From IMG/VR virus record IMGVR_UViG_2534681654_000010: DNA of 43,779 nucleotides; one strand, written 5' to 3'. Numbering within the stretch: the stretch's first letter is position 1; every line of letters starts with the position of its first letter. The translations under genes and the position numbers were made by a program. Shown here in pieces: positions 2,982 to 43,090 of this stretch. Source of the DNA: a virus (lineage: Duplodnaviria > Heunggongvirae > Uroviricota > Caudoviricetes). A model generated the notes under the pieces. It was given only the letters and a program-made list of their open reading frames with translations, had not been told where the DNA came from and made no database searches.

Positions 2982-3719
2982 TCATTCACTCTCTTTCAAA
3001 CCAGTTTTAACTGTTTGTGGTTTTGGGTAAGGCTGGACTTTGAATAGCTTTGTGTTGAGGCGTTTTCTGGCCCTCTTGTTCAGAAACCGGATGTAACGAA
3101 ACTGTCGGAACTTATGAACACTGGCTCTGTCAATATTAGCCCTCAGATGTTCACCTCGTTGTCCGCCTCGTTTAATGGCATTCCTGCAAATCTCGTGATA
3201 CCACTCGCCATCAAGTTCATAGAATATTGATTCATGGCTGCCTACATAATCAAAATTGCTTGCCTGATACACGACACCAAGACAGCCACAACGCTCATCT
3301 GCAAACGACTGAACCCACTGTACCTGCGGATAAAGCTGCCTGATTAGCTTGAGCGCGTAACTGATTGCCCTTGATTCGGAGTTTCTCGGCATACAGTCAT
3401 GCAGCCATAGCCGGTTAAGCTCCATATATTCTCGGTTCTGCGTACCCGTTACGACGCGTGCACCACTGTTTGGGTTAAGGGCGTAACCCCATTGCATTAC
3501 GCCAACAAGTTCCCGTTCTGAAAATATGCCCAGATGAAGGTAGGAGTTATTTACGAAACGGTGGCTGTAATGTTTATTGACGATGACCAGTCTGGCCAGC
3601 CAGCAACTTATTGTCTCAACCCGCAACTCACGGGAGCCATAACCAACGATATTGTCGTTATAGCGAATAAGTTCAGGCGTGCTGATGATTCGGGATGTGA
3701 CTTGCTTTCTGTTCCCCAC
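2982..3719 (-). CDS. mom: DNA modification protein Mom (adenine modification, anti-restriction)
   Basis: Product …[59 protein letters not shown]… matches my recollection of Mu Mom; last gene before the element end; 5' end overlaps com. Exact start codon uncertain. Confidence 0.8.
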
Positions 3720-3873
3720 GACAGGATTTCCTTGTGTATGTGGGGTGCTCTGTGGCGCTCGGAGATGTGATTTGATTGAGGGTTTTACAGCGCGGACATT
3801 TTACTTCCAGATAACTGAAACTGGCCCGTGCCAGTAGCTTATTGCAGTGTCGGCACCGTATGTTTCGATACAT
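3673..3873 (-). CDS. com: Com zinc-finger translational activator of mom
   Basis: [14 protein letters not shown]…CPRCK… has the CxxC…CxxC zinc ribbon and resembles Mu Com; AGGAGG RBS upstream of the ATG at 3873; 3' end overlaps mom. Confidence 0.75.
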
Positions 3874-3960
3874 GACCGCATAACCTCCTGCTTTGTTGTT
3901 GATGCCTTTCTCATGCAATCGATCGACAAAAACGATCGATTCGATTTGTTTAATTGATAC
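3874..3960 (-). promoter_or_regulatory. putative mom promoter/operator region with clustered Dam GATC sites
   Basis: GATC at about 3921-3924 and 3934-3937 (two more near 4044-4059) just upstream of com, followed by an AT-rich tract; Mu mom expression is Dam-methylation dependent. Confidence 0.4.
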
Positions 3961-4284
3961 AACAAATAGATTGAAAAGTCATCAACAATGATTCAGGGAG
4001 GTGATTATTTACTTAAAGAAAACGAAGAGTTAGGTGGTGAAAACGATCATAAAATGATCATTTTATTGACTTTTTATACAGTGAAGGTAGGATCACGCGT
4101 ATATGTAGTATGTTTCAAATCAACAGGATACTACATAAAAGTGAAACCCAGCATAGCTGGAACTATGCTGGGTCAATCTGTAAAAACTTGCATCAATGCT
4201 TTACTTCGAGCTCGTGGCGTATCCTATGATATTCCCCGGTCTCCTGTAAAGCAGAGATGCATAAAAAGGAGATCTTTATCATGG

Positions 4285-4452
4285 ATGAAAGAGCCTGTTT
4301 GCCCTGCCTGTAAGACTCCCTTACAGCTCATCTATCGCCGTTCTCGATCTCAAAATGGCAAGACATACAAACCCAAAAATGCTTCCTGTTTCAGGATGCT
4401 GATATGTCCTGCCTGTTCTCCCAGGAGGGAAAATACACAAAACGTGCATTAA
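4285..4452 (+). CDS. hypothetical small zinc-ribbon protein (CPAC…CPAC), speculative
   Basis: 55-codon frame MKEPVCPACKTPLQ…CFRMLICPACSPRR… with two CPxC motifs; AAAAAGGAGA lies upstream but is better spaced for a 10-codon ORF at 4281; AT-rich context. Confidence 0.3.
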   Translation: MKEPVCPACKTPLQLIYRRSRSQNGKTYKPKNASCFRMLICPACSPRRENTQNVH

Positions 4453-4461
4453 CAAACTCAC

Positions 4462-4481
4462 CCGGCAGGGAAACCTGCCGG
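4462..4481. terminator. perfect 8-bp stem / GAAA-loop hairpin between convergent ORFs
   Basis: CCGGCAGG-GAAA-CCTGCCGG between the plus-strand ORF ending 4452 and the minus-strand ORF ending 4491; no strong U-tract on either side. Confidence 0.4.
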
Positions 4482-4490
4482 TCGGTATTG

Positions 4491-4736
4491 TTACATCATA
4501 GTACCGTCAGTTCCGGGCTGAACCGGCTCTGGTTGCTCTACGGGTTGAGGATCATTTTCCGTGCTGTTTTCAGCCGGAGAACGGCCAACCATTCGGGCCA
4601 GCACTTCATCAACATATGCGTCGATTTGTGCCTCAAAATCCTTGCGAACCTGCGCCTTCAGCACGCGGTTCACTTCTTCAGAATAAAGTGCCTGTTTGAC
4701 AAGCTCTTCAGTAACCGTGCCTTTAATCTCTGGCAT
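4491..4736 (-). CDS. hypothetical 81-aa acidic protein
   Basis: ATG preceded by AAAGGAGA RBS; no family recognised. Confidence 0.5.
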   Translation of the reverse strand: MPEIKGTVTEELVKQALYSEEVNRVLKAQVRKDFEAQIDAYVDEVLARMVGRSPAENSTENDPQPVEQPEPVQPGTDGTMM

Positions 4737-4771
4737 GAATATTCTCCTTTTGCAGGTATATTGCCCCGTTA

Positions 4772-4954
4772 TCAGAGCGGGGTCGGGTCGTTTGGGGATG
4801 ACGGTGCCTGTGCTGTTTTACTGAGTTTTTCAGCTGCCGCATCATCAATTTTACGGCGAATATAATTTCTGATGACCTTATAACCACCGCTCACCAGATA
4901 TAACGCACTGACCACAGCGCAGAAATAAAGCAGCATTGTATGAACGAATGTCAT
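4772..4954 (-). CDS. hypothetical 60-aa single-pass membrane protein
   Basis: ATG preceded by AAGGTAAGG RBS; hydrophobic N-terminal helix (MLLYFCAVVSALYLVSGG) then a charged tail. Confidence 0.5.
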   Translation of the reverse strand: MTFVHTMLLYFCAVVSALYLVSGGYKVIRNYIRRKIDDAAAEKLSKTAQAPSSPNDPTPL

Positions 4955-5100
4955 ATAACCTTACCTTTGATATTGACTACATAATTCGTTATCGGGTAAA
5001 AACATCGAAGCGACTGATAACCACTCCTTCGGGAGTATTTTTATTTTCCTTTATGGGTTAGGTAGCTCCCGCCAGCCATATCATGACCGGCGGGATTTTT

Positions 5101-7239: not shown

Positions 7240-7800
7240 TTATTTTTCCGAAACGCTCGCAGGATAATAACGATAAAGGGTTGAAAGGCCGATATCAAAA
7301 ATAAGTGCCACCTGTCTTCGACTGACACCCCCGGCCAGTAAACGCCCGACCTGCTCGTATTGTTCCTGCGTGAGACGACGGGGTCTGCCGCCGGTTCGTC
7401 CCCTTTCACGGGCAGCTGCAAGACCAGCCCGTGTCCGTTCGACAATTAATTCACGCTCCATTTCTGCCAGCGCACCCATTATGTGAAAAAAGAAGCGCCC
7501 CATGGGGGGTGACGTATCAATGTTGTCAGTAAGACTACGAAAATTTATCCCCTGTTGCTGTAATTCATCTGTCAGCGCAACAAGGTGGCGCATACTGCGC
7601 CCCAGCCTGTCCAGTTTCCAGACCATCAGTGTGTCACCGGGTTTTAGTTTCTTCAGTGCCCGCTTCAGTCCCGGCCGCTGTGTCGTTTTACCACTCATTT
7701 TATCTTCAAAAATCTGCTCACATCCTGCACATTCCAGCGCATTTCTTTGTAAACCTGTGTTCTGGTCATTTGTTGATACGCGTATATAGCCAATCAGCAT
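7240..7800 (-). CDS. gin: Gin-type serine recombinase (DNA invertase)
   Basis: MLIGYIRVSTNDQNTGLQRNALECAGCEQIFEDKMSG… is a typical Gin/Hin/Pin/Cin resolvase-family invertase with C-terminal HTH; adjacent to the invertible tail-fibre segment. Confidence 0.9.
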   Translation of the reverse strand: MLIGYIRVSTNDQNTGLQRNALECAGCEQIFEDKMSGKTTQRPGLKRALKKLKPGDTLMVWKLDRLGRSMRHLVALTDELQQQGINFRSLTDNIDTSPPMGRFFFHIMGALAEMERELIVERTRAGLAAARERGRTGGRPRRLTQEQYEQVGRLLAGGVSRRQVALIFDIGLSTLYRYYPASVSEK

Positions 7801-7854
7801 GTATTTACCTTCCTTAAAAAGAGGTGGAAAGGCCTTTTAAAGCAGATATACGGC

Positions 7855-7880
7855 ATCCCTGAAACCTTCGGTTTACGGGA
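7855..7880. repeat. gix-like recombination site (gin-proximal), at the outer edge of a ~170-bp imperfect inverted repeat
   Basis: Reverse complement reads TCCCGTAAACCGAAGGTTTCAGGGAT, resembling Gin/Hin/Cin crossover sites; the half-site TCCCGTAAACC is shared with the site at 9231-9256. Inverted homology (~80%) extends from about 7873 to 8040. Confidence 0.55.
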
Positions 7881-8226
7881 TACTGTAAACAGGGCCGCGA
7901 ATGCCCTGCCATCGAACGGAGCGGCTGTTGCAGCGAATAAACTCGCCACTCCAAGAAATATTAATGGTGTCCCATTTGACGGAACGCAGGATATAAATAT
8001 TACATCGGGGATGACGCAGTCTGTGGCTGACTCACGTTATGTTCAAAGCATTCGAAGAGGTTCAAGGTCAACGATTGGAATGCAATATAATATTTTTGAG
8101 GTTCCTGACGGATGCGTACTTACAGGGCTTGATGTCGCTGGTGATGGTAATGCAACGGTAACCGCATATTATCGACCTGTTCAGTTTCTGATAGATGGTT
8201 CGTGGAAAACAGCTTCCAGCGCATAA
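7861..8226 (+). other. silent alternative tail-fibre C-terminal cassette (S'v), no start codon of its own in this orientation
   Basis: Frame open from 7777 to 8226; encodes …ALPSNGAAVAANKLATPRNINGVPFDGTQDINITSGMTQSVADSRYVQ… homologous to the C-terminal region of the expressed fibre gene on the opposite strand, then a different tip (…YYRPVQFLIDGSWKTASSA). Confidence 0.65.
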
Positions 8227-8305
8227 AAGTGCAGTAGTTCAAAAAACAGATTATCTGAATAAATATATGATGATTTTGTCTTTTCAACAAAAACAAGGTG
8301 AAATA

Positions 8306-8827
8306 ATGGAGCTTATTAACGTAAAACGATATTACCCGGAACACAAACCCTATGGTGAGGATGTTCAGTATTTCCAGAGTGAGGACGGAAGGGATTTTTA
8401 TGAATCTATCCCGCTTTTCACAAAGAAATACAAACTCTGTATTTCGCCTGTAACGGGTATTATCTGCTCTGTTGCTGAAGATGTCTCTGCTTTATATCCG
8501 GCAGGTTTTACTGTTGTTGAAGTGGACGAACTGCCGGAAGGTGTGAATATTGACGGTAACTGGCAGTTTTCTGATGGCCTGATATCAAAGGTGCCGGTAA
8601 ACTGGAAGACGGTTGCTGAAAAGCGCCGCTCATCGCTGCTCCAGGAAGCCAACGAAACTGTGGATGACTGGAAAACGGAATTAAAACTGGACATGATTAG
8701 CGATGAAAATAAATTACAGCTGACGCGCTGGATGGCGTATATCCGACAGCTTAAAGAAATGCACTTTAATGATATTGCCAGTGAGGGGCATTACCAGGCG
8801 ATTCCCTGGCCGGAAAAACCGGAATAA
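8306..8827 (+). CDS. tail fibre assembly chaperone (U'/Tfa-like), inside the invertible segment
   Basis: 174-aa product MELINVKRYYPEHKPYGEDVQYF… with a Tfa-type C-terminus; follows the S'v cassette on the same strand; AT-rich. Confidence 0.7.
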   Translation: MELINVKRYYPEHKPYGEDVQYFQSEDGRDFYESIPLFTKKYKLCISPVTGIICSVAEDVSALYPAGFTVVEVDELPEGVNIDGNWQFSDGLISKVPVNWKTVAEKRRSSLLQEANETVDDWKTELKLDMISDENKLQLTRWMAYIRQLKEMHFNDIASEGHYQAIPWPEKPE

Positions 8828-8861
8828 TTCAGAGGGTGCATTCAGCACCCTTTTCTGTGGT

Positions 8862-9773
8862 TTACACTGAACTTACCGTTCTCCAGGCATTATTAATATA
8901 AATCTGAACCGGGCGATAATAGACCCCACCGATATTGTCCGCAGACCGGGAGCCGGTTTCCTGCACGTTAATTCCGGAAAGCATACAACCGGAAGGTGCG
9001 CTGTAATTCCATGACATTTCATTGCCTCCGGGTGAATGATAGCTCTGTGCTCCAAGCTGAACATTCTGTACATACCGGCCATCTGCGGTTGACTGCGTCA
9101 TTCCTGACGTGATGTTGATATCCAGCGTTCCGTCAAAAGGAACACCATTAATATTTCTTGGGGTGGCGAGTCTGTTTGCTGCCACGGCGGTTCCACCCGA
9201 TGGCAGGGCATCAGCAGCCTTATTTACCGTTTCCCGTAAACCAACGTTATCGATAAAAGCGCCTTTATCCGGAATGTCTGCGCCGTTCTGCTCCCTGCGC
9301 AGGTAACGGTTATCACCTTCGCTTTTGCTGTAAACATCCAGATTATTACGGGCGGTTCCCGCATTCTCCAGGTCGGCAAGGTTCTGATCCTTCGCCAGAG
9401 CATTAACGTCACCGGGACCAAGACTGTTTTTTGTGGCAAGCGCCCCAAGACCAAGATAACCACGGGCAAGACGCTGGGCTTCCGCACCGGCATCAGCAAT
9501 TTCTTTCAGGTTGTTTTTCCGGGAAAAGGCATTCGCAGCGATAATGGCTTTAATGGACAGCGTAAGCTGGTTTAACTGCGCCTTATCCGGCTGAATACTG
9601 GCTTCAGCCAGAATATTCAGCAGTTCGGCCTGGAGAATATTCAGCCAGTCCTGACCAATCCAGCTGATACCTTTTTGTCCGTCACCTTCGGTAAACCAGG
9701 TGGTGGTATTACTCTGCGCCGGTGCCAGCGCAGGCATATTCGCCACGCCGGAATTATTATCAACATGGAACAT
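8862..9773 (-). CDS. S: tail fibre protein (constant N-terminus fused to the currently expressed variable C-terminus, Sv)
   Basis: Start MFHVDNNSGVANMPALAP… overlaps the stop of the upstream gene (TAATG); the C-terminal ~120 aa lie inside the invertible segment and end …GGVYYRPVQIYINNAWRTVSSV. Confidence 0.75.
   Translation of the reverse strand: MFHVDNNSGVANMPALAPAQSNTTTWFTEGDGQKGISWIGQDWLNILQAELLNILAEASIQPDKAQLNQLTLSIKAIIAANAFSRKNNLKEIADAGAEAQRLARGYLGLGALATKNSLGPGDVNALAKDQNLADLENAGTARNNLDVYSKSEGDNRYLRREQNGADIPDKGAFIDNVGLRETVNKAADALPSGGTAVAANRLATPRNINGVPFDGTLDINITSGMTQSTADGRYVQNVQLGAQSYHSPGGNEMSWNYSAPSGCMLSGINVQETGSRSADNIGGVYYRPVQIYINNAWRTVSSV
9231..9256. repeat. gix-like recombination site inside the tail-fibre gene
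   Basis: TTCCCGTAAACCAACGTTATCGATAA resembles Gin/Cin/Hin crossover sites; inverted ~170-bp homology with 7873-8040 runs inward from here (about 9065-9240). Confidence 0.55.
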
Positions 9774-31134: not shown

Positions 31135-31560
31135 TCAGAAAAGTGGCGGTTGCGTTCTTGCCAGATGCAGACGGCGCTGTTCGCGTATGACGGTATAAAT
31201 CTGGGTTTCTGACATCCGGTAATGGCGGCGAAGGGATTCAATTTTCTCGCCCCGGTCCCAGCGCGAAAATATCTCATTGTTTCGCAGCTCGGCAAAGAGA
31301 GATTCCCCGACCGGCAGGTAATAACCCCGTCCGCCCATATAGGCTGCCTGAGCCGCAGCCACCTTGCGTGCCAGTTTACCGGCCAGTACCGGCTCAATCC
31401 CCTGACGCTGAAGTTCTGCGCCGGTGACTTCAACCAGTTCTGACAGGGTCCGCGGCCAGTTCTTTTTGAGAACATCATCAGGGATGTCATCAAGGCGGTC
31501 GATAAGGGCGTGCAGTTGCTCACTGTCACCACCAAACATGCTCATCTGAGTTTCTGCCAT
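31135..31560 (-). CDS. Mor/C-family transcriptional activator (middle/late gene activator)
   Basis: 141 aa with the Mor/C-family pattern (…LIDRLDDIPDDVLKKNWPRT…IYTVIREQRRLH…); the only family member seen between gemA and lys. Confidence 0.7.
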   Translation of the reverse strand: MAETQMSMFGGDSEQLHALIDRLDDIPDDVLKKNWPRTLSELVEVTGAELQRQGIEPVLAGKLARKVAAAQAAYMGGRGYYLPVGESLFAELRNNEIFSRWDRGEKIESLRRHYRMSETQIYTVIREQRRLHLARTQPPLF

Positions 31561-31629
31561 ATCAGCCTCCGGTTCTCGCGTTCCCGGTAAGTTTAAAATA
31601 AAAATCCCGCGTTGTGGCGGGATTTGGGG

Positions 31630-32139
31630 TTAACGGGGAAGTGATTTTTCATACTGCCTGCAAACGGCGTCATACCCCATCAGCGTGCGTTCGGGCATTC
31701 CCATCGCGGCCAGCATTTTGCGGCGGTGCCATCGCTTGAGACGCTCCAGCACATCTGAGGCCAGGGCGGGGTGTTGCTCCAGCCACTGCCAGTTTGCCAC
31801 ACCTTCGCCGCCGTTCTGCGCGGCCGTCTGCGATTTCACCCAGCGGTTAAGGGCGGTTTCCGCACCATCGGTGATAAAGCCCTGCCGGTGCATCACCTTC
31901 CAGATGGCGCGAATTTTGGCGGTCACCGTACCCGGTTTTAAGGCCCGGTTAACCGGGTTCTGACGCACTTTAAAACCGCGTTTTTTGAAAACATCCAGCA
32001 CGCGGGATAACTCATCCGGTGACATATCCCGGCAGCTGGTTTTGCCGGTGGCTGCCAGCAGCGCGGATGTATAAGTCTCATCATCCAGGGCAAGCTCGCG
32101 CTTTGCCACATGAATGGCGGATATCAGTTTTCCTCTCAT
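31630..32139 (-). CDS. gemA: GemA-like regulatory protein
   Basis: 169 aa adjacent to the Mor/C-family gene, as in Mu. Confidence 0.6.
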   Translation of the reverse strand: MRGKLISAIHVAKRELALDDETYTSALLAATGKTSCRDMSPDELSRVLDVFKKRGFKVRQNPVNRALKPGTVTAKIRAIWKVMHRQGFITDGAETALNRWVKSQTAAQNGGEGVANWQWLEQHPALASDVLERLKRWHRRKMLAAMGMPERTLMGYDAVCRQYEKSLPR

Positions 32140-32432
32140 ACCGTATTTACCTTTTTACGGACATGGAAAGCCTTTTCTGCCTCATCCCACCGGGCATGGT
32201 GTGTTGGTGGAATAATCATTATGTGCCAGCCATCTCTGGTTGTTATCCGGCAGAAAAACTCACCGCTATATAACACAATGGCCTGCTGAATGAGCGCATC
32301 AGCCGCCCGTTCAACCGGATGTCTTTTATCAAAAAAGCAGATGATTTTTCGACATAACCACCGGGTAATAACAAATGCGCCGAAAAAGGATGTGATATAT
32401 AAGCACCAGAACAACAGAGAACTATTGTCCAT
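32136..32432 (-). CDS. hypothetical membrane protein (early region)
   Basis: 98 aa, hydrophobic N-terminus; coupled to gemA. Confidence 0.4.
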   Translation of the reverse strand: MDNSSLLFWCLYITSFFGAFVITRWLCRKIICFFDKRHPVERAADALIQQAIVLYSGEFFCRITTRDGWHIMIIPPTHHARWDEAEKAFHVRKKVNTV

Positions 32433-32619
32433 TATCTTTCTCCTTATTCACTCTTCTGCGGCATTCGGCACAGTCATCAGGGCTTTCAAATGTATCCGGC
32501 TCGCGATTATGAGCCAGATATAACCACCGTCCACATATACTGATATTTTCGCCTGTTTTAAAAAAATGATGCTTCCTGGCCATTAGTGGCCGCGCCCATC
32601 CAGCGGGTAGACTATTCAT
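32422..32619 (-). CDS. hypothetical small Cys-containing protein
   Basis: 65 aa with CGRW…CAECRRR; AT-rich islet. Confidence 0.35.
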   Translation of the reverse strand: MNSLPAGWARPLMARKHHFFKTGENISICGRWLYLAHNREPDTFESPDDCAECRRRVNKEKDNGQ

Positions 32620-32986
32620 TTGCTTTATCCTCCATGCTGGACAGAATCATATGTATTAATGTCGGGCGTGGAGATATACGCATTTCATTAAGCGTCTGAA
32701 GGGCAGCAACAGCTGCCTGTTTATCGGTGCCTTTGGCAATTTCAGCAAGAGAATGCACAATCCATAACGGACTTAACGCCACGGCTGAATCCAGAATCAT
32801 GTCATCCATAATAATTTCTGGCATATCCCGTTTGTCACATTCTTTATCCATAAAAGAAACGATTTTTTCTGCATCTTCCGGTTTCATGCCTCCGGCGATG
32901 AGAATTTTACGATATTCATAAGACGATCTTAATTCAATACTCATATTCATCTCCTGTAACTCTGACAAGGTCGTGATTTTTCTCAT
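32612..32986 (-). CDS. hypothetical protein (early region)
   Basis: 124-aa ORF, overlapped with neighbours; no family recognised. Confidence 0.4.
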   Translation of the reverse strand: MRKITTLSELQEMNMSIELRSSYEYRKILIAGGMKPEDAEKIVSFMDKECDKRDMPEIIMDDMILDSAVALSPLWIVHSLAEIAKGTDKQAAVAALQTLNEMRISPRPTLIHMILSSMEDKANE

Positions 32987-33168
32987 TTATGTTTTCCAGT
33001 AATACGGATATATATGTCGATAAGAAGATTCATAATAAACAGGAAGAGCGACATCCTGATAAAGAACCATATATCCGGCATCATGGACAGATTTCCTGTA
33101 ACCGCAAATATAAAACCAACCCCCCACACAGGAACGATAATTGCGAAAAAAACAAGTCTCCTTATCAT
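32983..33168 (-). CDS. hypothetical small two-helix membrane protein
   Basis: 61 aa, very hydrophobic; AT-rich. Confidence 0.4.
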   Translation of the reverse strand: MIRRLVFFAIIVPVWGVGFIFAVTGNLSMMPDIWFFIRMSLFLFIMNLLIDIYIRITGKHK

Positions 33169-33716
33169 GTCGTTAACTCCCGTAATACAACATCTTCGGC
33201 AGTCCGACGACGGTGATAAATAAAACTCACCGTGCCCTCGGATAATTCAAATTTCTCGCCGATTTCCCTAAAGGTAAGACGCCGTGGTGATTCAGCATCC
33301 CGTAATTCACGAATAAGATGAACATCATCGTCAGGTATGCGGGTAAAAGGCAGTAATTCTCCGTATTTTTTCATGCTTACGCCAATATATCGCGCCCGAT
33401 TGTGGACAGAATCCCGGTCTCGCCCCAGATATTCTCCTATTTGCTTACCGGTCATCGTCCTGGCATTTTTTCGGATAAATTTATCTTCATCAGGTTTAAA
33501 TCTGAGGCGTTTGCATTTGAGCAACTCCGGGTAAGTACCGCGTAATAAAACAATCCGGTTATGTACACCCCAGAAACTTCTTTTTATCCTGACAGCAATA
33601 TCCTTAACCGGGGTGGATGGATAAAGCGCAATCAGCAGCGCATCTTCTTCAGGTGTCCATGCGCGAACATGAGCGGGTGCACGGCCTTTTCTCCCCATGG
33701 GTTGTAATTTCATCAT
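33165..33716 (-). CDS. hypothetical DNA-binding protein with Myb/SANT-like and HTH-like repeats
   Basis: 183 aa; WTPEEDALLIALY resembles a Myb/SANT helix; two further HTH-like segments. Confidence 0.45.
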   Translation of the reverse strand: MMKLQPMGRKGRAPAHVRAWTPEEDALLIALYPSTPVKDIAVRIKRSFWGVHNRIVLLRGTYPELLKCKRLRFKPDEDKFIRKNARTMTGKQIGEYLGRDRDSVHNRARYIGVSMKKYGELLPFTRIPDDDVHLIRELRDAESPRRLTFREIGEKFELSEGTVSFIYHRRRTAEDVVLRELTT

Positions 33717-33719
33717 GCA

Positions 33720-34235
33720 TCACCCCCCGACTCGCTTTTCGGCAGCATAAAACTCATCAGACAGAATTTCGGTCATTTTCCGTTTTGCGGAATCATCTTC
33801 GCACTGAAGGTAAATAACATCGTCAACGCAGAACCACTTCACGGGACCATGCAATATTGCTGAGAAGTCAATACCCAGCCAGAACAACAGTGCATCGGTT
33901 CTGGCATACGTGACGGGCGAATATTCACGCCACAGACTGTTAAGTTCGTCAGAGGCAACGCGCAGGGCTTTGGGAATACGTGATGTGCGCGGTGTGCAGC
34001 TCCAGCCATTCGACGCAGTCGGTTTTCGCCATAAGTCGCGATGAAAAGGATATTTGTCATCCATAAAGCGCAGCCCTTTAAAACAAAAGCCACTGATACC
34101 GGATACAAATACCGACCGGCACGCAACATTCAGCACGGCCTCAAGGCGTTTTGCCTCATCCTTAACTTTCTGGCAGTCCTGCTGATATTTTTGCCACGCG
34201 GCCAGCGCGGAAGGGTTTGATGTTTTAAAGAACAT
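33720..34235 (-). CDS. hypothetical protein (early region)
   Basis: 171-aa ORF, tight spacing with neighbours. Confidence 0.45.
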   Translation of the reverse strand: MFFKTSNPSALAAWQKYQQDCQKVKDEAKRLEAVLNVACRSVFVSGISGFCFKGLRFMDDKYPFHRDLWRKPTASNGWSCTPRTSRIPKALRVASDELNSLWREYSPVTYARTDALLFWLGIDFSAILHGPVKWFCVDDVIYLQCEDDSAKRKMTEILSDEFYAAEKRVGG

Positions 34236-38297: not shown

Positions 38298-40388
38298 TCA
38301 GGCCAGCGGGTCATTTTCTTTTAATTTCGCTTCGAGCAACTGCAATCCCCGCTGGAAATTGCGCTCGTATTCTTCATCAGGCTCATCATCAATGGCAGGT
38401 TGCTGAACGGCCACCGTATTACCTACCGGGCGATAGATGTTTTCCAGCCAGGGCTCCTGCGGCTTGTGCTCCAGCACGTTGACAACCTCATCCTCGGCAT
38501 CACGGATTTTTTCCTCTGCGCGTTTACGCATGCCTTTAAGGCGTTGCTGCTGTTTGTAGTATTCCGCGCTAACCGGGAAGGCTTCGCGTTTATTACCGTC
38601 CCATACCGCCTCGCAAATCACGCTGCCATCCAGGCGACGTACGGTAATTCGTTCGGCATCATGAATGTCATAGCTGATAAGCACCTTGCGGCCATGCTCA
38701 TCACGCAGCTCGGGCGCGTAGTAAATATTATTCAGCCAGCGTATTTCACAGCGTCTTACAGGGCGTTCCACCATCGGCCGGAACATGTCCCGCAATTCCA
38801 CATCGGACAGCCATTCAATTTCCGTGTCCTCTTCCGCCAGGCGTTTTTTTCTGAACTCCGCCGGGCTGTAATGCTTGCCGTTCGGCTTCACCGGTAATTC
38901 ATCGTGCGGCCGGTTGTTGTACCACTCAACACCATCACGAATGGCATCAATCAGTTCAGACCAGGACGGTAAATCACGCATCGCTGACTGCTGCCGGGCG
39001 TTCAGCCGTTTGCCCTGTTGCAGGGCAGTAAATGCCGAGCGTAAATCGCGGTTGGTTTTGCGTAACGTCTCGCGATCTGCACCTTTCCCGAAATAGGTGC
39101 GGTATTTACGGGCTATGCGCATCGGTAATGTGCGGTTAAGCCGTTCGATAATGCCTCGTCCCTGCGGATTACCGGCAATCCCGGTCGGGTGATTAATCCC
39201 CAGTCGCGGCAGTATCCCCACAACCTCCTTATCCAGGATGTCGGCGGTTTCCCCGGAGCCGTTATCCGAGTAATACAGAAACGGTTTGCCGTGATGGCGA
39301 ATGCCGTGCTGTATGGCACCGGCTACGGCGAAAACATTTTCAGCCAGGTCAAGGCTCCAGCCCACCACAAAGCGCGTGCCACCGTCGATAACAAAGGTCA
39401 CTTCCGGTGCAAATGGCCGACCGTGAACCGGGTGTGCGCATTTCAGCTTCATGCCGTGACCGTCACCAATCCAGACATAATTCACCGGCATTCTGGACCA
39501 GTCGCGGCGCGTGAATCCCTCAAGCTGGCGGTATTCACTGCCGGTCACCCGGCCTTTTTGTTTCACCACTTCCGGCAGTTTCTTCATTGCGCGGCGAATG
39601 GTGTCATAAGACGGCATGATATCGAGCATATAAGGCTCATCAGCGTGCCGGTGCTGCCATTCAGCGACAAAATCCTCGTAAGCCTCGGTCATTGGTCGGC
39701 CGTTTGACTGGCGATACTGCGCCAGAAATTCGGGCAGCCAGTTAATATCTTCGGCTTTTATTTCCTGGCGTTTACCCGGTGCCAGTAAAAGCAGGCGTTC
39801 AGCGGCGTTCTGTGCCTTGTTAAAGGCCGCAATCCATCGCTTCAGCGTGATTTCACTCAACGCACGGCTGTTTCCCTTTTTGGCGTTCGCCGTCTCAACC
39901 ATTGCCACAATGCGCTCGTCCAGCTGTGAACGTGCCAGGTTGTCAACGATAAACCGGATAGCCTTCGCGCAGCTGAAACCGGGTTGTTGCGCGACTTTCA
40001 TCACTTCGCTGACGATCGCGATTCGTGCATCAGCCACCTGGCGCTGGTTTTCAGTCAGGGCATTGAGGCGTTCGACCATCAGTTGTGGTGATCCGCGATA
40101 TGCCTCCACCGCATCAACCACGTCAGATGAGCGTCTGGCCTTTGTCACCACCGGAGCCGGTGATTCATCGGCTTTTTGCGTCATCAGTTGCAGGGCATAA
40201 CGTTCACGTAATGCCTGCTGCGTCACTTCAGGTAAACAGTCGATGCTGTATTCAGTTGCTTTAGAGCCTGAGCGACGACGGGAACAACAGCTTTTCCCTT
40301 GTACGTAACGTTGTAATGCCTGGCGAATACCTTTTGTTGTAGCAGGCATTCCGGGCGCGCCAATCAGTTCTTTTGCAATGACATACAT
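38298..40388 (-). CDS. A: MuA-like DDE transposase
   Basis: 696 aa; strong overall resemblance to Mu transposase A, with central catalytic core and C-terminal acidic tail. Confidence 0.9.
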   Translation of the reverse strand: MYVIAKELIGAPGMPATTKGIRQALQRYVQGKSCCSRRRSGSKATEYSIDCLPEVTQQALRERYALQLMTQKADESPAPVVTKARRSSDVVDAVEAYRGSPQLMVERLNALTENQRQVADARIAIVSEVMKVAQQPGFSCAKAIRFIVDNLARSQLDERIVAMVETANAKKGNSRALSEITLKRWIAAFNKAQNAAERLLLLAPGKRQEIKAEDINWLPEFLAQYRQSNGRPMTEAYEDFVAEWQHRHADEPYMLDIMPSYDTIRRAMKKLPEVVKQKGRVTGSEYRQLEGFTRRDWSRMPVNYVWIGDGHGMKLKCAHPVHGRPFAPEVTFVIDGGTRFVVGWSLDLAENVFAVAGAIQHGIRHHGKPFLYYSDNGSGETADILDKEVVGILPRLGINHPTGIAGNPQGRGIIERLNRTLPMRIARKYRTYFGKGADRETLRKTNRDLRSAFTALQQGKRLNARQQSAMRDLPSWSELIDAIRDGVEWYNNRPHDELPVKPNGKHYSPAEFRKKRLAEEDTEIEWLSDVELRDMFRPMVERPVRRCEIRWLNNIYYAPELRDEHGRKVLISYDIHDAERITVRRLDGSVICEAVWDGNKREAFPVSAEYYKQQQRLKGMRKRAEEKIRDAEDEVVNVLEHKPQEPWLENIYRPVGNTVAVQQPAIDDEPDEEYERNFQRGLQLLEAKLKENDPLA

Positions 40389-40389
40389 A

Positions 40390-40638
40390 TCATGACGCCT
40401 TTCTCATATAGCTCTTAACCTGGTATCTACTGGGCCAGATTTCTTCAGGCGATACCCCAAGAGCATCAGCAATTATTTGCTGATACGGTCGGCAAGGAGT
40501 ACGTAATACGCTTTTCAGCGAATCCCTGCTGTAACCAGCCTTTAAAGATAAAGAGCGCAGTGATAAGCCAGCCATGTGTAAGCGCGCCTTGATGATTTCA
40601 GGCGGCCAATCGTGATCTGAAACTTCTCTTCTACTCAT
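40390..40638 (-). CDS. ner: Ner-like DNA-binding regulator
   Basis: 82 aa with …SLSLKAGYSRDSLKSVL…QQIIADALGVSPEEIWPSRYQ… resembling Mu Ner; upstream of A and divergent from the repressor gene. Confidence 0.75.
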   Translation of the reverse strand: MSRREVSDHDWPPEIIKARLHMAGLSLRSLSLKAGYSRDSLKSVLRTPCRPYQQIIADALGVSPEEIWPSRYQVKSYMRKAS

Positions 40639-40828
40639 ACTTCCTCTATTCTAAAAAGTTACCCGCGCGGATATTCGTGCGGATATCTGCACGGGTAAAT
40701 AATGCATCACCAAAAATACCAAATCAAGGTATTTTTGGTATTTTGGCTAATTTTTGCTTTTATCCTTATTTTTCAATTGGATAAATAGAAAGAAACCTTT
40801 CCTTAGAAAAGCACCAAGAGGTATCTTT
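40639..40828. promoter_or_regulatory. divergent early/repressor promoter-operator region
   Basis: Intergenic region between ner and the repressor gene; 7-bp inverted arms TTACCCG/CGGGTAA enclose a duplicated GCGGATAT (about 40659-40698); perfect 11-bp inverted repeat CCAAAAATACC/GGTATTTTTGG (about 40710-40738). Confidence 0.5.
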
Positions 40829-41359
40829 ATGTCGCAGGGAAAAGAACCTGTTATTGAACGTATTGGAATGCTTACAAAGCGCTACCCTTCAAGAAGTGCA
40901 GCTGCCAGAGCGTGGGGAATCAATATCAACACATTAAACAGCTATTTCAAGGGAGGACAAACACAACCAGCCCCCAGAGAAAGTATCCTTATACGAATTT
41001 CTGAAAGTGAAGGAGTTAGTCTTGAGTGGCTTAAAGAGGGCAAGGGTGAATCACCAAACGATGTTGGTATTTGTGGTAATTTTGGTTGTTCTGGTGATAA
41101 GGGAGATCAACTTACACAGATGCTTTCATTCCTTACGAAAGACGAACGAGAACAGTTAACCAATCTCCTTGCTCGCAAAGGTGTAGAGACGGTTCTGACA
41201 CTGCTGGATAAAGAAAACCAGGATTTATTACAACTAGAAGGCAGGAAGCGCCTGGCTGCGTTGATGATTGTAGATATGCCAGACGATTGCGTCAGAGAGA
41301 TTTTGGAAAAAACCGAGACAAGTAGGCAATCAAATCCGGTAGAATCTAAAGCGGGTTAG
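40829..41359 (+). CDS. c: putative prophage repressor (Mu c-like position)
   Basis: ATG with AAGAGG RBS; N-terminal HTH-like segment; divergent from ner and transcribed toward the element end as in Mu. Confidence 0.55.
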   Translation: MSQGKEPVIERIGMLTKRYPSRSAAARAWGININTLNSYFKGGQTQPAPRESILIRISESEGVSLEWLKEGKGESPNDVGICGNFGCSGDKGDQLTQMLSFLTKDEREQLTNLLARKGVETVLTLLDKENQDLLQLEGRKRLAALMIVDMPDDCVREILEKTETSRQSNPVESKAG

Positions 41360-41437
41360 TTTGGCGAGGCTGGCCCGTATGTTAGTTGCCATATAGATTT
41401 AATGAAGTTTTAAACGCTTTAAAAAGTTGAGATCGCA

Positions 41438-41609
41438 GTATCAAAAGTTTTGCCGATTTTAGAATAAACGATTAATTATTGCACAATCGGTATCAAATAG
41501 ACTTTAAGCGCTCATCCAGACATCACCTGTTTTATTTCAGTATCTTACAGGTGATTTCACCTCCTTTCACTAAAACCCTCGTTGGTATCAAATGATTCAC
41601 CTGGTTACA
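41438..41609. repeat. element end (Mu left-end equivalent) with GTATCAAA transposase-binding-like repeats
   Basis: GTATCAAA at about 41438-41446, 41489-41497 and 41584-41592; element terminates …GGTTACA at 41609 (terminal CA). Confidence 0.6.
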
Positions 41610-41614
41610 GGGAT
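41610..41614. repeat. target-site duplication GGGAT, right copy
   Basis: Identical to 2850-2854; followed by H-homologous sequence gat cgt gaa aag…. Confidence 0.8.
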
Positions 41615-43090
41615 GATCGTGAAAAGGCCCGTCTTGCGCTTGAAGCCGCCCGAAAGAAGGCTGAGCAGCAGAGTCAACAGGACAAAAATGCGCAGCAACA
41701 GAGCGATACCGAAGCGTCACGGCTGAAATATACCGAAGAGGCGCAGAAGGCTTACGAACGCCTGCAGACGCCGCTGGAGAAATATACCGCCCGTCAGGAA
41801 GAACTGAATAAGGCACTGAAAGACGGGAAAATCCTGCAGGCAGATTACAACACGCTGATGGCGGCGGCGAAAAAGGACTATGAAGCGACGCTGAAAAAGC
41901 CGAAACAGTCCGGCGTGAAGGTGTCTGCGGGCGATCGTCAGGAAGACAGTGCTCATGCTGCCCTGCTGACGCTTCAGGCAGAACTCCGGATGCTGGAGAA
42001 GCATGCCGGAGCGAATGAGAAAATCAGCCAGCAGCGCCGGGATTTGTGGAAGGCAGAAAGTCAGTTCGCGGTACTGGAGGAGGCGGCACAACGTCGCCAG
42101 CTGTCCGCACAGGAGAAATCCCTGCTGGCGCATAAAGACGAGACGCTGGAGTACAAACGCCAGCTGGCTGTACTTGGCGACAAGGTCACCTATCAGGAGC
42201 ACCTGAACGCGCTGGCACAGCAGGCGGATAAATTCGCACAGCAACAACGGGCAAAACGGGCCGCCATTGATGCAAAAAACCGGGGGCTGACTGACCGGCA
42301 GGCAGCGCGGGAAGCCACGGAACAGCGCCTGAAGGAACAGTATGGCGATAATCCTCTGGCGCTGAATAACGTCATGTCAGAGCAGAAAAAGACCTGGGCA
42401 GCTGAAGACCAGCTTCGCGGGAGCTGGATGGCAGGCCTCAGGTCAGGCTGGAGTGAGTGGGAAGAGAGCGCCACGGACAGTATGTCGCAGGTTAAAAGTG
42501 CTGCCACGCAGACCTTTGATGGTATTGCACAGAATATGGCGGCGATGCTGACCGGCAGTGAACAGAACTGGCGCAGCTTCACCCGTTCCGTGCTGTCCAT
42601 GATGACAGAAATTCTGCTTAAGCAGGCAATGGTGGGGATTGTCGGAAGTATAGGCAGCGCCATTGGCGGCGGCGCATCAGCGTCAGGCGGTACAGCCATT
42701 CAGGCAGCTGCGGCGAAATTCCATTTTGCGGCCGGAGGGTTTACGGGAACCGGCGGCAAATATGAGCCAGCGGGGATTGTTCACCGTGGTGAATTTGTCT
42801 TCACGAAGGAGGCAACCAGCCGGATTGGCGTAGGAAATCTTTACCGGCTGATGCGCGGCTATGCCACCGGCGGTTATGTCGGTACACCGGGCAGCATGGC
42901 GGACAGCCGGTCGCAGGCGTCCGGGACGTTTGAGCAGAATAACCATGTGGTGATTAACAACGACGGCACGAACGGTCAGATAGGGCCACAGGCACTGAAG
43001 GCGGTTTATGACGTAGCCCGTAAGGCGGCAATGGATGTTGTGACCGGGCAGATGCGCGATGGTGGTCTGTTCTCCGGAGGTGGACGATGA
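41610..43090 (+). pseudogene. H: tape measure protein H, C-terminal fragment, separated from its 5' part by the Mu-like insertion
   Basis: Frame reads …DDREKARLALEAARKKAEQQ… to …MRDGGLFSGGGR*, matching the lambda gpH C-terminal portion; in frame with the N-terminal fragment once the insertion and one TSD copy are removed. Confidence 0.9.

Follow-up and report, generated by a model that had tools for sequence, protein, structure and literature searches.

The window analysed here, a 43,779-nucleotide stretch of viral DNA (IMG/VR record IMGVR_UViG_2534681654_000010), carries a Mu-like prophage in which four small genes, designated o61, o110, o65 and o98, occupy positions 32136-33168 next to gemA. 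This islet is an accessory region: it is bounded by conserved genes, and its content differs among close relatives. The interpretation that we favor, with a probability of about 0.62, is that the early operon of Sp18-type prophages holds a variable cassette slot at its promoter-distal end, represented here by the islet, and that the genes of this slot function as exchangeable accessory factors.

The 2.3-kb stretch at 31500-33800 is 100% identical to Sp18, a Mu-like prophage of Escherichia coli O157:H7 Sakai that was rated intact by Asadulghani et al. (PMC2669165). The same stretch is 100% identical in at least 24 further complete E. coli genomes among the matches listed, and 53 records are at least 99% identical to it. 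A match is present in 232 of 5426 complete E. coli genomes, including many Shiga-toxin-producing strains. The prophage has already been annotated, with the four open reading frames (ORFs) listed as hypothetical proteins, and no paper on their locus tags or protein accessions was found in the literature. AT-rich plasticity regions have likewise been described in Mu-like phages; the islet is a further, well-delimited example of an already known type of region, and this finding alone leaves existing knowledge unchanged.

Exchange of gene sets between o183 and gemA

Slot content was compared across eight loci from E. coli genomes or phage records and 36 IMG/VR loci identified by a search with GemA of Sp18, together with Mu, Shigella phage SfMu and three more distant loci. 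All genes between gp12 and gemA were assigned in each locus, and architectures were counted in the 44 loci that span both slot boundaries. At least seven architectures follow the helix-turn-helix (HTH) gene o183: o61-o110-o65-o98, as in this window (6 loci); the same order ending in o98b, an allele ~50% identical to o98 (8 loci); c103-c116-o110-o65 followed by o98 or o98b (5 loci); c103-o98 (3 loci); c103 followed by gp13 (92% identical to that of Mu), a gp14-like gene and a reverse 79-aa ORF (7 loci); c103-c116-o110 followed by a reverse 136-aa DUF2513-like ORF (7 loci); and o61-c75-c103-c116-o110-o65-o98 (1 locus). In other architectures o61 is replaced by c103 and c116 or by c103 alone, and o98b stands in place of o98 in many relatives. 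The pool of genes includes o61, c75, c103, c116, o110, o65, two o98 alleles, gp13, gp14, gp15 and three reverse-strand ORFs. These replacements occur while the flanks stay 92-99% identical, which bears out the proposal of an earlier note on this DNA, made from the sequence, that the genes form an accessory, horizontally exchanged part of a Mu-type early region. The presence or absence of individual genes among relatives suggests that the slot genes are dispensable for phage growth.

Homology to relatives breaks recurrently at 33159 (the o183 stop), at 32957 and 32976 (both in the spacer between o61 and o110), at 32435 (the o98 start) and at 32115 (24 nt into gemA), which marks the slot as a hot spot of recombination. 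In three loci (L004, L006 and L010) it stops at 32957, and in L010 it resumes at 32976 after an insertion of ~900 bp with three more genes. On the outer sides, homology is back at 33159 towards o183 and at 32115-32139 towards gemA, and positions 32136-33168 thus coincide almost exactly with the variable slot. No flanking repeats other than short chance ones were found at the cassettes, and an insertion sequence, an integron-like element or a repeat-bounded cassette was rejected on this ground; an RNA element was likewise rejected, with 0 Rfam matches anywhere in the window.

At the gemA-proximal end of the slot, sister architectures and SfMu carry an ORF opposite to the early operon, and this window has none. 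These comprise an ORF of 136 aa whose match to DUF2513 is sub-threshold (L074, 3520-3930, minus strand), a 79-aa ORF matching PHROG 32893 (L011, 2214-2453, plus strand) and gp16 of SfMu (L057, 2532-2798, minus strand). Expression of such ORFs would require a promoter of their own and could take place in the lysogen.

The closest known counterpart of the slot is found in Mu, whose gene order is gam - gp11 - gp12 - gp13 - gp14 - gp15 - gemA - mor; that of Sp18 is gam - o180 - gp11 - gp12 - o183 - o61 - o110 - o65 - o98 - gemA, with 67%, 53% and 44% identity to Mu for gp11, gp12 and gemA, respectively. The Mu genes gp13 (E14), gp14 (E15) and gp15 (Mu_54) occupy the corresponding place in the same orientation, following the gp11/gp12 pair and preceding gemA where the early operon ends, as expected from the early-region location proposed earlier. 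Both slots hold two to five small ORFs whose function is unknown, with one Cys-rich product among them, and the Mu slot is also lower than gemA in guanine-plus-cytosine (GC) content (46.7% vs 55.3%). In some Sp18-type relatives, Mu gp13 and a gp14-like gene even replace the islet. Sp18-type prophages differ from Mu in possessing the additional gene o183 (Mu gp9-like) before the slot and in a deeper drop in GC before gemA (-15 vs -7 points). The islet proteins themselves are not homologous to their Mu counterparts: BLASTP against Mu gp13, gp14 and gp15 gave nothing better than E = 0.09, and distant homology of o110 to gp14 and of o65 to gp13 was rejected at an hhalign probability of 0.2% each.

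Comparable regions have been characterized in other phages. The Mu-like phages of Pseudomonas aeruginosa possess AT-rich regions of genomic plasticity (RGPs) with small ORFs, including anti-CRISPR loci (Cazares et al. 2014, PMC4378225), and the accessory regions of enterobacteriophages are enriched in counter-defence genes, among which Mu E6/Mup07 is gnarl2 (Silas et al. 2023, bioRxiv 10.1101/2023.04.06.535777). Like the Sp18 slot, these regions are fixed sites between core genes at which close relatives swap small ORFs (34-100 codons), often coincide with GC valleys and have no recognisable recombinase target at their borders. However, in those studies function was tested or homology to anti-CRISPR proteins was known, whereas the Sp18 slot is known here from sequence alone; the dataset of Silas et al. 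excluded prophages, which places the slot outside that survey. E6/Mup07 is located in the Mu early region upstream of gam, not in the slot before gemA.

Coding evidence, base composition and predicted products

The four ORFs are genuine protein-coding genes under purifying selection. A Shine-Dalgarno site precedes all four starts. The window was compared with seven related loci of 77-99% identity using the Nei-Gojobori ratio of nonsynonymous to synonymous differences per site (pN/pS). No insertions or deletions were detected in the four ORFs, and pN/pS was ~0.07-0.25, a range like that of gemA, gp11 and o183; by gene, it was 0-0.21 for o98, 0-0.25 for o65 and 0.19-0.24 for o61, whose copies are 83-95% identical. 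Their conservation as coding sequences, on which the earlier note had made its proposal depend, is therefore evident.

One detail of gene structure required revision. The positions given earlier for ORFs of 98, 65, 124 and 61 aa hold for all four, and the lengths for all except the 124-aa ORF (start at 32986), which is really 110 aa. The start at 32944 was chosen because AGGAG lies 6 nt upstream, the homologues all begin with MSIEL and PHROG 1988 aligns from residue 15; RefSeq also gives 110 aa for this gene. With this correction, o61 and o110 do not overlap and are 38 nt apart. The tight overlap reported previously persists at the other junctions, namely o183/o61 (4 nt), o110/o65 (8 nt), o65/o98 (11 nt) and o98/gemA (4 nt).

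The AT-richness noted by eye was confirmed by windowed calculation. GC content at 32136-33168 is 41.9%, compared with a mean of 53.6% (standard deviation 4.9%) for 1033-bp windows within the prophage, only 0.9% of which are as low. By gene, it is 44.1% in o98, 45.5% in o65, 40.3% in the 124-aa frame and 36.6% in o61, the lowest of the set; it falls abruptly at the gemA/o98 boundary, with 57.5% in gemA and 55.2% in the gene for a Mor/C-type activator beyond it. GC at third codon positions is also depressed (0.39-0.47 in the four genes vs 0.65 in gemA and 0.56 in the Mor/C-like gene), so the shift in composition is more than an amino-acid effect. Low GC extends leftwards through o183 (45.8%) to ~33700, and the compositional islet is thus ~1.6 kb, slightly larger than first noted.

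This low GC is a trait of the gene pool that circulates through the slot and does not point to a single recent acquisition. All architectures have a slot GC of 42.5-47%, compared with 52-58% for gemA in loci with the whole gene. Among 35 species-level genomes encoding a GemA relative, the 1 kb before gemA is below gemA in GC in 30 (mean -3.3 points, Wilcoxon p = 4e-6) and is also below the DNA further upstream (p = 2e-5). Since all alternative cassette sets and the constant o183 are AT-rich, low GC provides no evidence for a single recent import; with this qualification, the earlier view of the region as horizontally exchanged stands. Three further valleys (GC of at most 44% over 1 kb) occur in the prophage at 3168-5009, 7429-9084 and 40113-41836, which in the Sakai annotation fall at the com/mom end, where small hypothetical genes (one DUF826) lie, in the invertible tail-fibre segment and at the repressor end.

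None of the four proteins matched Pfam, NCBIfam or PADLOC (E <= 0.1), PHROGs returned only families of 'unknown function', and a PDB sequence search gave nothing below E = 0.8. The modelled structures of o65 and o110 had no informative fold match, and all members of the o110 and o65 alignments gave only chance-level matches to Pfam. The alternative cassettes were also without a Pfam, NCBIfam or PADLOC match.

Two of the proteins are membrane-like, as previously described. The product of o61 is very hydrophobic, with two predicted transmembrane (TM) segments (two 19-residue hydrophobic peaks, at 1-28 and 32-58), basic ends and a weak match to PHROG 19804 (E = 7e-5). A class II holin was considered and rejected: two TM segments and basic ends fit, but the gene is located in the early operon rather than in the lysis cassette, separated by 2 kb and one terminator from the lysozyme/spanin/DUF2730 lysis genes. 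The product of o98 has one N-terminal TM segment (peak 4-24) and a basic soluble tail of ~65 aa (isoelectric point, pI, 9.1), and belongs to PHROG 17269, of unknown function (E = 2e-32). Relatives of o98 and o61 are few and come from E. coli wherever the source is named, with the exception of a weak o98 relative (22% identity) beside the o110 homologue in locus L015.

The o110 protein is acidic (pI 4.9) and predicted to form six helices (model confidence, as the predicted local distance difference test, pLDDT, of 66), with the conserved core ALSP-WI..L..IA.G.DKQAAVAAL. An exhaustive HMMER search of 1.84 billion representatives returned 10 matches, two of which are longer: P0043, whose repeats match the N-terminal part of o110 only, and P0046, which has an extra 140-aa N-terminal region; neither offered a clue to function. 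The family occurs only in enterobacterial Mu-like phages, and all homologues of readable position lie just upstream of gemA. They include a 49%-identical gene between gp13 and gp14 in the Mu-type contig L012, further copies in Citrobacter braakii (L016) and SfMu, and a 227-aa fused form two genes before gemA in L015. The homologues in SfMu (gp14, YP_009152200) and in the Yersinia Mu-like phages vB_YpM_3/5/6/23 show 34-36% identity over 82-85% of the length; that of SfMu lies in the same slot, and the Yersinia matches are at the level of sequence only. They are annotated as hypothetical and are flanked by homologues of Mu gp13 and gp14, in contrast to o61 and o65 in Sp18.

The o65 protein is soluble and basic, and residues H17, H18, C29, C50 and C53 are invariant in a 14-sequence alignment, with a C-x2-C motif before the C-terminal helix. 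In an AlphaFold 2 model (pLDDT 76), short strands are followed by a helix at 51-63 that starts at this motif. These features point to a putative small metal-binding protein; comparison with zinc-ribbon and zinc-knuckle folds gave no significant PDB match (best Nop10-like, E = 1.4). The earlier description of a single Cys-containing product is right for o65, with 3 Cys, and overlooks o98, which holds 4. A tblastn search identified 197 phage records with o65 relatives, of which 167 are Pseudomonas phages, largely PB1-like (Pbunavirus) where names show. Structure matches in BFVD are uncharacterised Pbunavirus proteins only, with 39-46% identity by tblastn, 35-40% over the Foldseek alignments and Foldseek E values down to 4e-4. 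Further members occur in lytic coliphages, a Citrobacter phage-plasmid-like element and the early regions of other phages. In a Salmonella Mu-like prophage the gene immediately precedes gemA, and an EDL933 prophage has a copy in its lambdoid nin region, where the DNA match, located in the P-Q interval, is 70% identical. The nin and Pbunavirus members are all uncharacterised and differ from Sp18 in genomic context, and o65 matched neither NinD, NinE, NinF, NinH nor any other Pfam model. Rare frameshifted variants in public assemblies (P0028-P0030) keep the N-terminal 20 residues and then continue in another frame, indicating that decayed cassette copies circulate.

Operon context and neighbouring genes

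In this part of the window, the minus strand encodes every phage gene (Table 1); the four islet genes share the direction of the early operon and overlap or directly adjoin its members. A consensus scan against shuffled sequences gave 6 promoter-like sites (6.1 expected) and 4 terminator-like sites (4.9 expected), none of which brackets a gene. The hairpin directly after gemA was the only strong one with a T-run and is the probable end of the early transcription unit. In Mu, a semi-early promoter precedes gemA, and lysogens keep the early operon repressed through c. From the coupling or close spacing of the genes, the lack of promoter signal above chance and the terminator after gemA, we infer transcription with the early operon; the four genes would probably be expressed with it on infection or induction, and not in the lysogen. 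Expression in the lysogen, previously suggested as a check, is unlikely to be informative.

Table 1. Features of the pre-gemA slot and of neighbouring or distant genes mentioned in the text (window positions).
Feature	Position	Strand	Remarks
ECs_4993, 679 aa	5101..7140	-	cargo gene between DNA invertase and com/mom end
Mor/C-family activator gene	31135..31560	-	between gemA and lysis genes
Intrinsic-terminator-like hairpin	31602..31625	-	9-bp stem, 5 GC pairs, T-run; directly after gemA stop (consensus scan)
gemA homologue (ECs_4960)	31630..32139	-	constant right flank; Pfam GemA PF06252, E = 3e-30; 44% identity to Mu GemA
o98 (ECs_4959), 98 aa	32136..32432	-	AAGGAG 7 nt before ATG; stop overlaps gemA start by 4 nt (ATGA)
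o65 (ECs_4958), 65 aa	32422..32619	-	GGAGGA ribosome-binding site (RBS)
o110 (ECs_4957), 110 aa	32612..32944	-	AGGAG 6 nt upstream of ATG at 32944
Spacer o61-o110, 38 nt	32945..32982	-	contains o110 RBS and recurrent junctions 32957 and 32976
o61 (ECs_5772), 61 aa	32983..33168	-	GGAG RBS
o183 (ECs_4956)	33165..33716	-	constant left flank; HTH / SANT-Myb-like DNA-binding, Mu gp9-related
o180 (ECs_4953), 180 aa	34772..35314	-	PHROG 2260; between gam and gp11

Both flanks of the slot are well conserved. The assignment of the right-hand neighbour as gemA, made earlier from the sequence, agrees with its Pfam match (Table 1), and this gene is 85-100% identical across Sp18-type loci with both slot ends. 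On the left, o183 is kept in all Sp18-type loci at 71-100% identity, AT-rich yet invariant in presence; it matches PHROG 323 ('transcriptional regulator, D5-like', E = 1e-58), shows 32% identity to Mu gp9, and has Sigma70_r4 and HTH matches in Pfam that all fall under the gathering cut-offs.

Several observations concern other parts of the prophage. The gene o180 has no counterpart in Mu; a relative with 40% identity occupies the same position in L012, a gene annotated DUF5420 occupies the gam-gp11 position in SfMu, and o180 is frameshifted in L009 and absent from L007, so that its site resembles a second, smaller variable site. On the other side of gemA, a single Mor/C-family activator gene (39% identity to Mu C vs 27% to Mor) directly follows the terminator-like hairpin and is succeeded by the lysozyme gene. 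Mu has a separate mor and the middle-operon genes gp18-gp20 at that position; no match to gp18-gp20 was found among the proteins compared, other parts of the window not having been searched. In L007 (E. coli CP55_Sichuan), two extra ORFs without a family match are inserted between gemA and the Mor/C-like gene at 1811-2468, one of 78 aa on the operon strand and one of 140 aa on the opposite strand, which marks another insertion point beside the terminator.

The cargo gene ECs_4993, at whose position Mu has no gene, encodes sialate O-acetylesterase (SASA, E = 6e-12) and DUF6645 (E = 2e-69) domains and has no PADLOC match; we presume that it resembles the NanS-p esterases of enterohaemorrhagic E. 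coli prophages. By the Sakai annotation Sp18 interrupts the sorbose phosphotransferase system gene sorM, which is annotated there as two pseudogene fragments and in which the insertion lies at ~2850 and 41608 of the window. Towards its right end, the window has gene positions shifted by 1 bp relative to a Sakai-based mapping, and an insertion or deletion relative to NC_002695.2 may lie outside the islet.

Possible roles of the slot genes

The structural side of our interpretation is firmly supported: the slot extends from the constant o183, downstream of the gp11/gp12 pair, to gemA, each of its genes is an independently exchangeable module, and related phages carry other combinations from a pool of at least 12 small AT-rich gene families. 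Exchange would probably proceed by homologous recombination in the conserved flanks together with illegitimate or short-homology joins at gene ends. The genes would probably act as individually dispensable accessory factors on the host during lytic development, with o110 and o65 as soluble binders of host or rival-phage targets and o61 and o98 as small inner-membrane proteins. By analogy with the accessory regions of other phages, counter-defence or host takeover would be the most plausible class of function. The argument for a host-interaction or anti-defence role, drawn from position and from the precedent of Mu E6/Mup07 as gnarl2, is weak; early-acting accessory factors are our best guess, and dispensable developmental functions fit equally.

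Several points weigh against this interpretation. The pN/pS values are ordinary and show no sign of diversifying selection, and none of the anti-defence families covered, which are those within Pfam, NCBIfam and PDB, was matched. The near-ubiquity of the o65 family in lytic Pbunavirus genomes could mean a housekeeping role in phage development, as could the fixed position of o110 where its context is readable; for these two genes, the breadth of the one and the constancy of the other lean slightly towards developmental roles. The timing of expression was deduced from sequence only, and an internal promoter like the semi-early one of Mu may be active.

These points lead to a different explanation, in which the genes are ordinary lineage-specific development genes (for transposition-replication, transcription timing or envelope remodelling) and their variation reflects analogous replacement rather than an arms race. 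The constant position of o110 homologues in distantly related Mu-like phages of enterobacteria, among them the isolated phage SfMu, the o65 relatives in largely lytic Pseudomonas phages and lytic coliphages, pN/pS values as for gemA and gp11, and the equal AT-richness of the constant o183 are all consistent with it. However, whole genes are present or absent between loci with nearly identical flanks, Mu lacks all four genes, and either the pair o65 and o98 or the pair o110 and o65 is missing from some architectures, which is hard to square with required functions; we regard this explanation as unlikely, while giving it appreciable weight. Less probable still is that the prophage expresses the genes as 'morons', for lysogenic conversion or superinfection exclusion, with o61 and o98 blocking phage entry or DNA injection or altering the envelope. 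Small AT-rich genes beside conserved modules are typical of morons, the GC of the islet is unlike that of the surrounding phage genes (41.9% vs 53.6%), two of the products are predicted membrane proteins, and the reverse ORFs of sister architectures (c79rev, the 136-aa DUF2513-like ORF and SfMu gp16) would need their own promoter. The four genes themselves, by contrast, are co-oriented with and overlap genes of an operon that in Mu is under c repression in lysogens, and the promoter- and terminator-like sites around them neither exceed the shuffled expectation nor bracket a gene.

Two further alternatives receive very little credence. One holds that the four genes arrived together from an AT-rich donor and form a single co-functional system, such as a toxin-antitoxin-like module or a membrane complex whose regulators are soluble. 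Tight packing with stop/start overlaps, shared low GC and the prevalence of the order o61-o110-o65-o98, the commonest at 14 of 44 loci counting both o98 alleles, would suit such a system. Nevertheless, the genes assort independently: some loci have o110 but neither o65 nor o98, others have o98 but neither o110 nor o65 (as in c103-o98), and o65 is found in unrelated phage types, by itself ahead of gemA in Salmonella or within lambdoid nin regions. In addition, o98 is exchanged for its 50% allele while its neighbours stay 96-99% identical, and the junctions are located between genes. This assortment implies that the four genes are not one system, which makes a single system highly improbable. 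The other, that the ORFs arose by chance in non-coding DNA of high AT content, could appeal to their shortness, their lack of domains and the one start that was mis-set at first reading. It is scarcely credible and was rejected on the pN/pS values and the absence of frame-breaking insertions or deletions down to 77% identity; Shine-Dalgarno sites at all starts, PHROG matches up to E = 1e-44 for three genes (that of o61 being weak only) and homologues in other genera also speak against it.

For exchangeable accessory factors in a variable slot, the reading that we prefer, the consequences are as follows. The slot provides a precisely bounded place, from the o183 stop to the gemA start, in which to seek small host-directed or counter-defence proteins in enterobacterial Mu-like prophages; the elements are common, and the cassettes are short enough to be cloned as a panel. 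It is a tentative and somewhat doubtful proposition that at least one of o110, o65, o61 and o98 is a new kind of counter-defence or host-takeover factor deployed early by Mu-like phages. If it were true, transposable phages of enterobacteria would have a general anti-defence locus in the pre-gemA slot, like the anti-CRISPR locus of the Mu-like phages of Pseudomonas.

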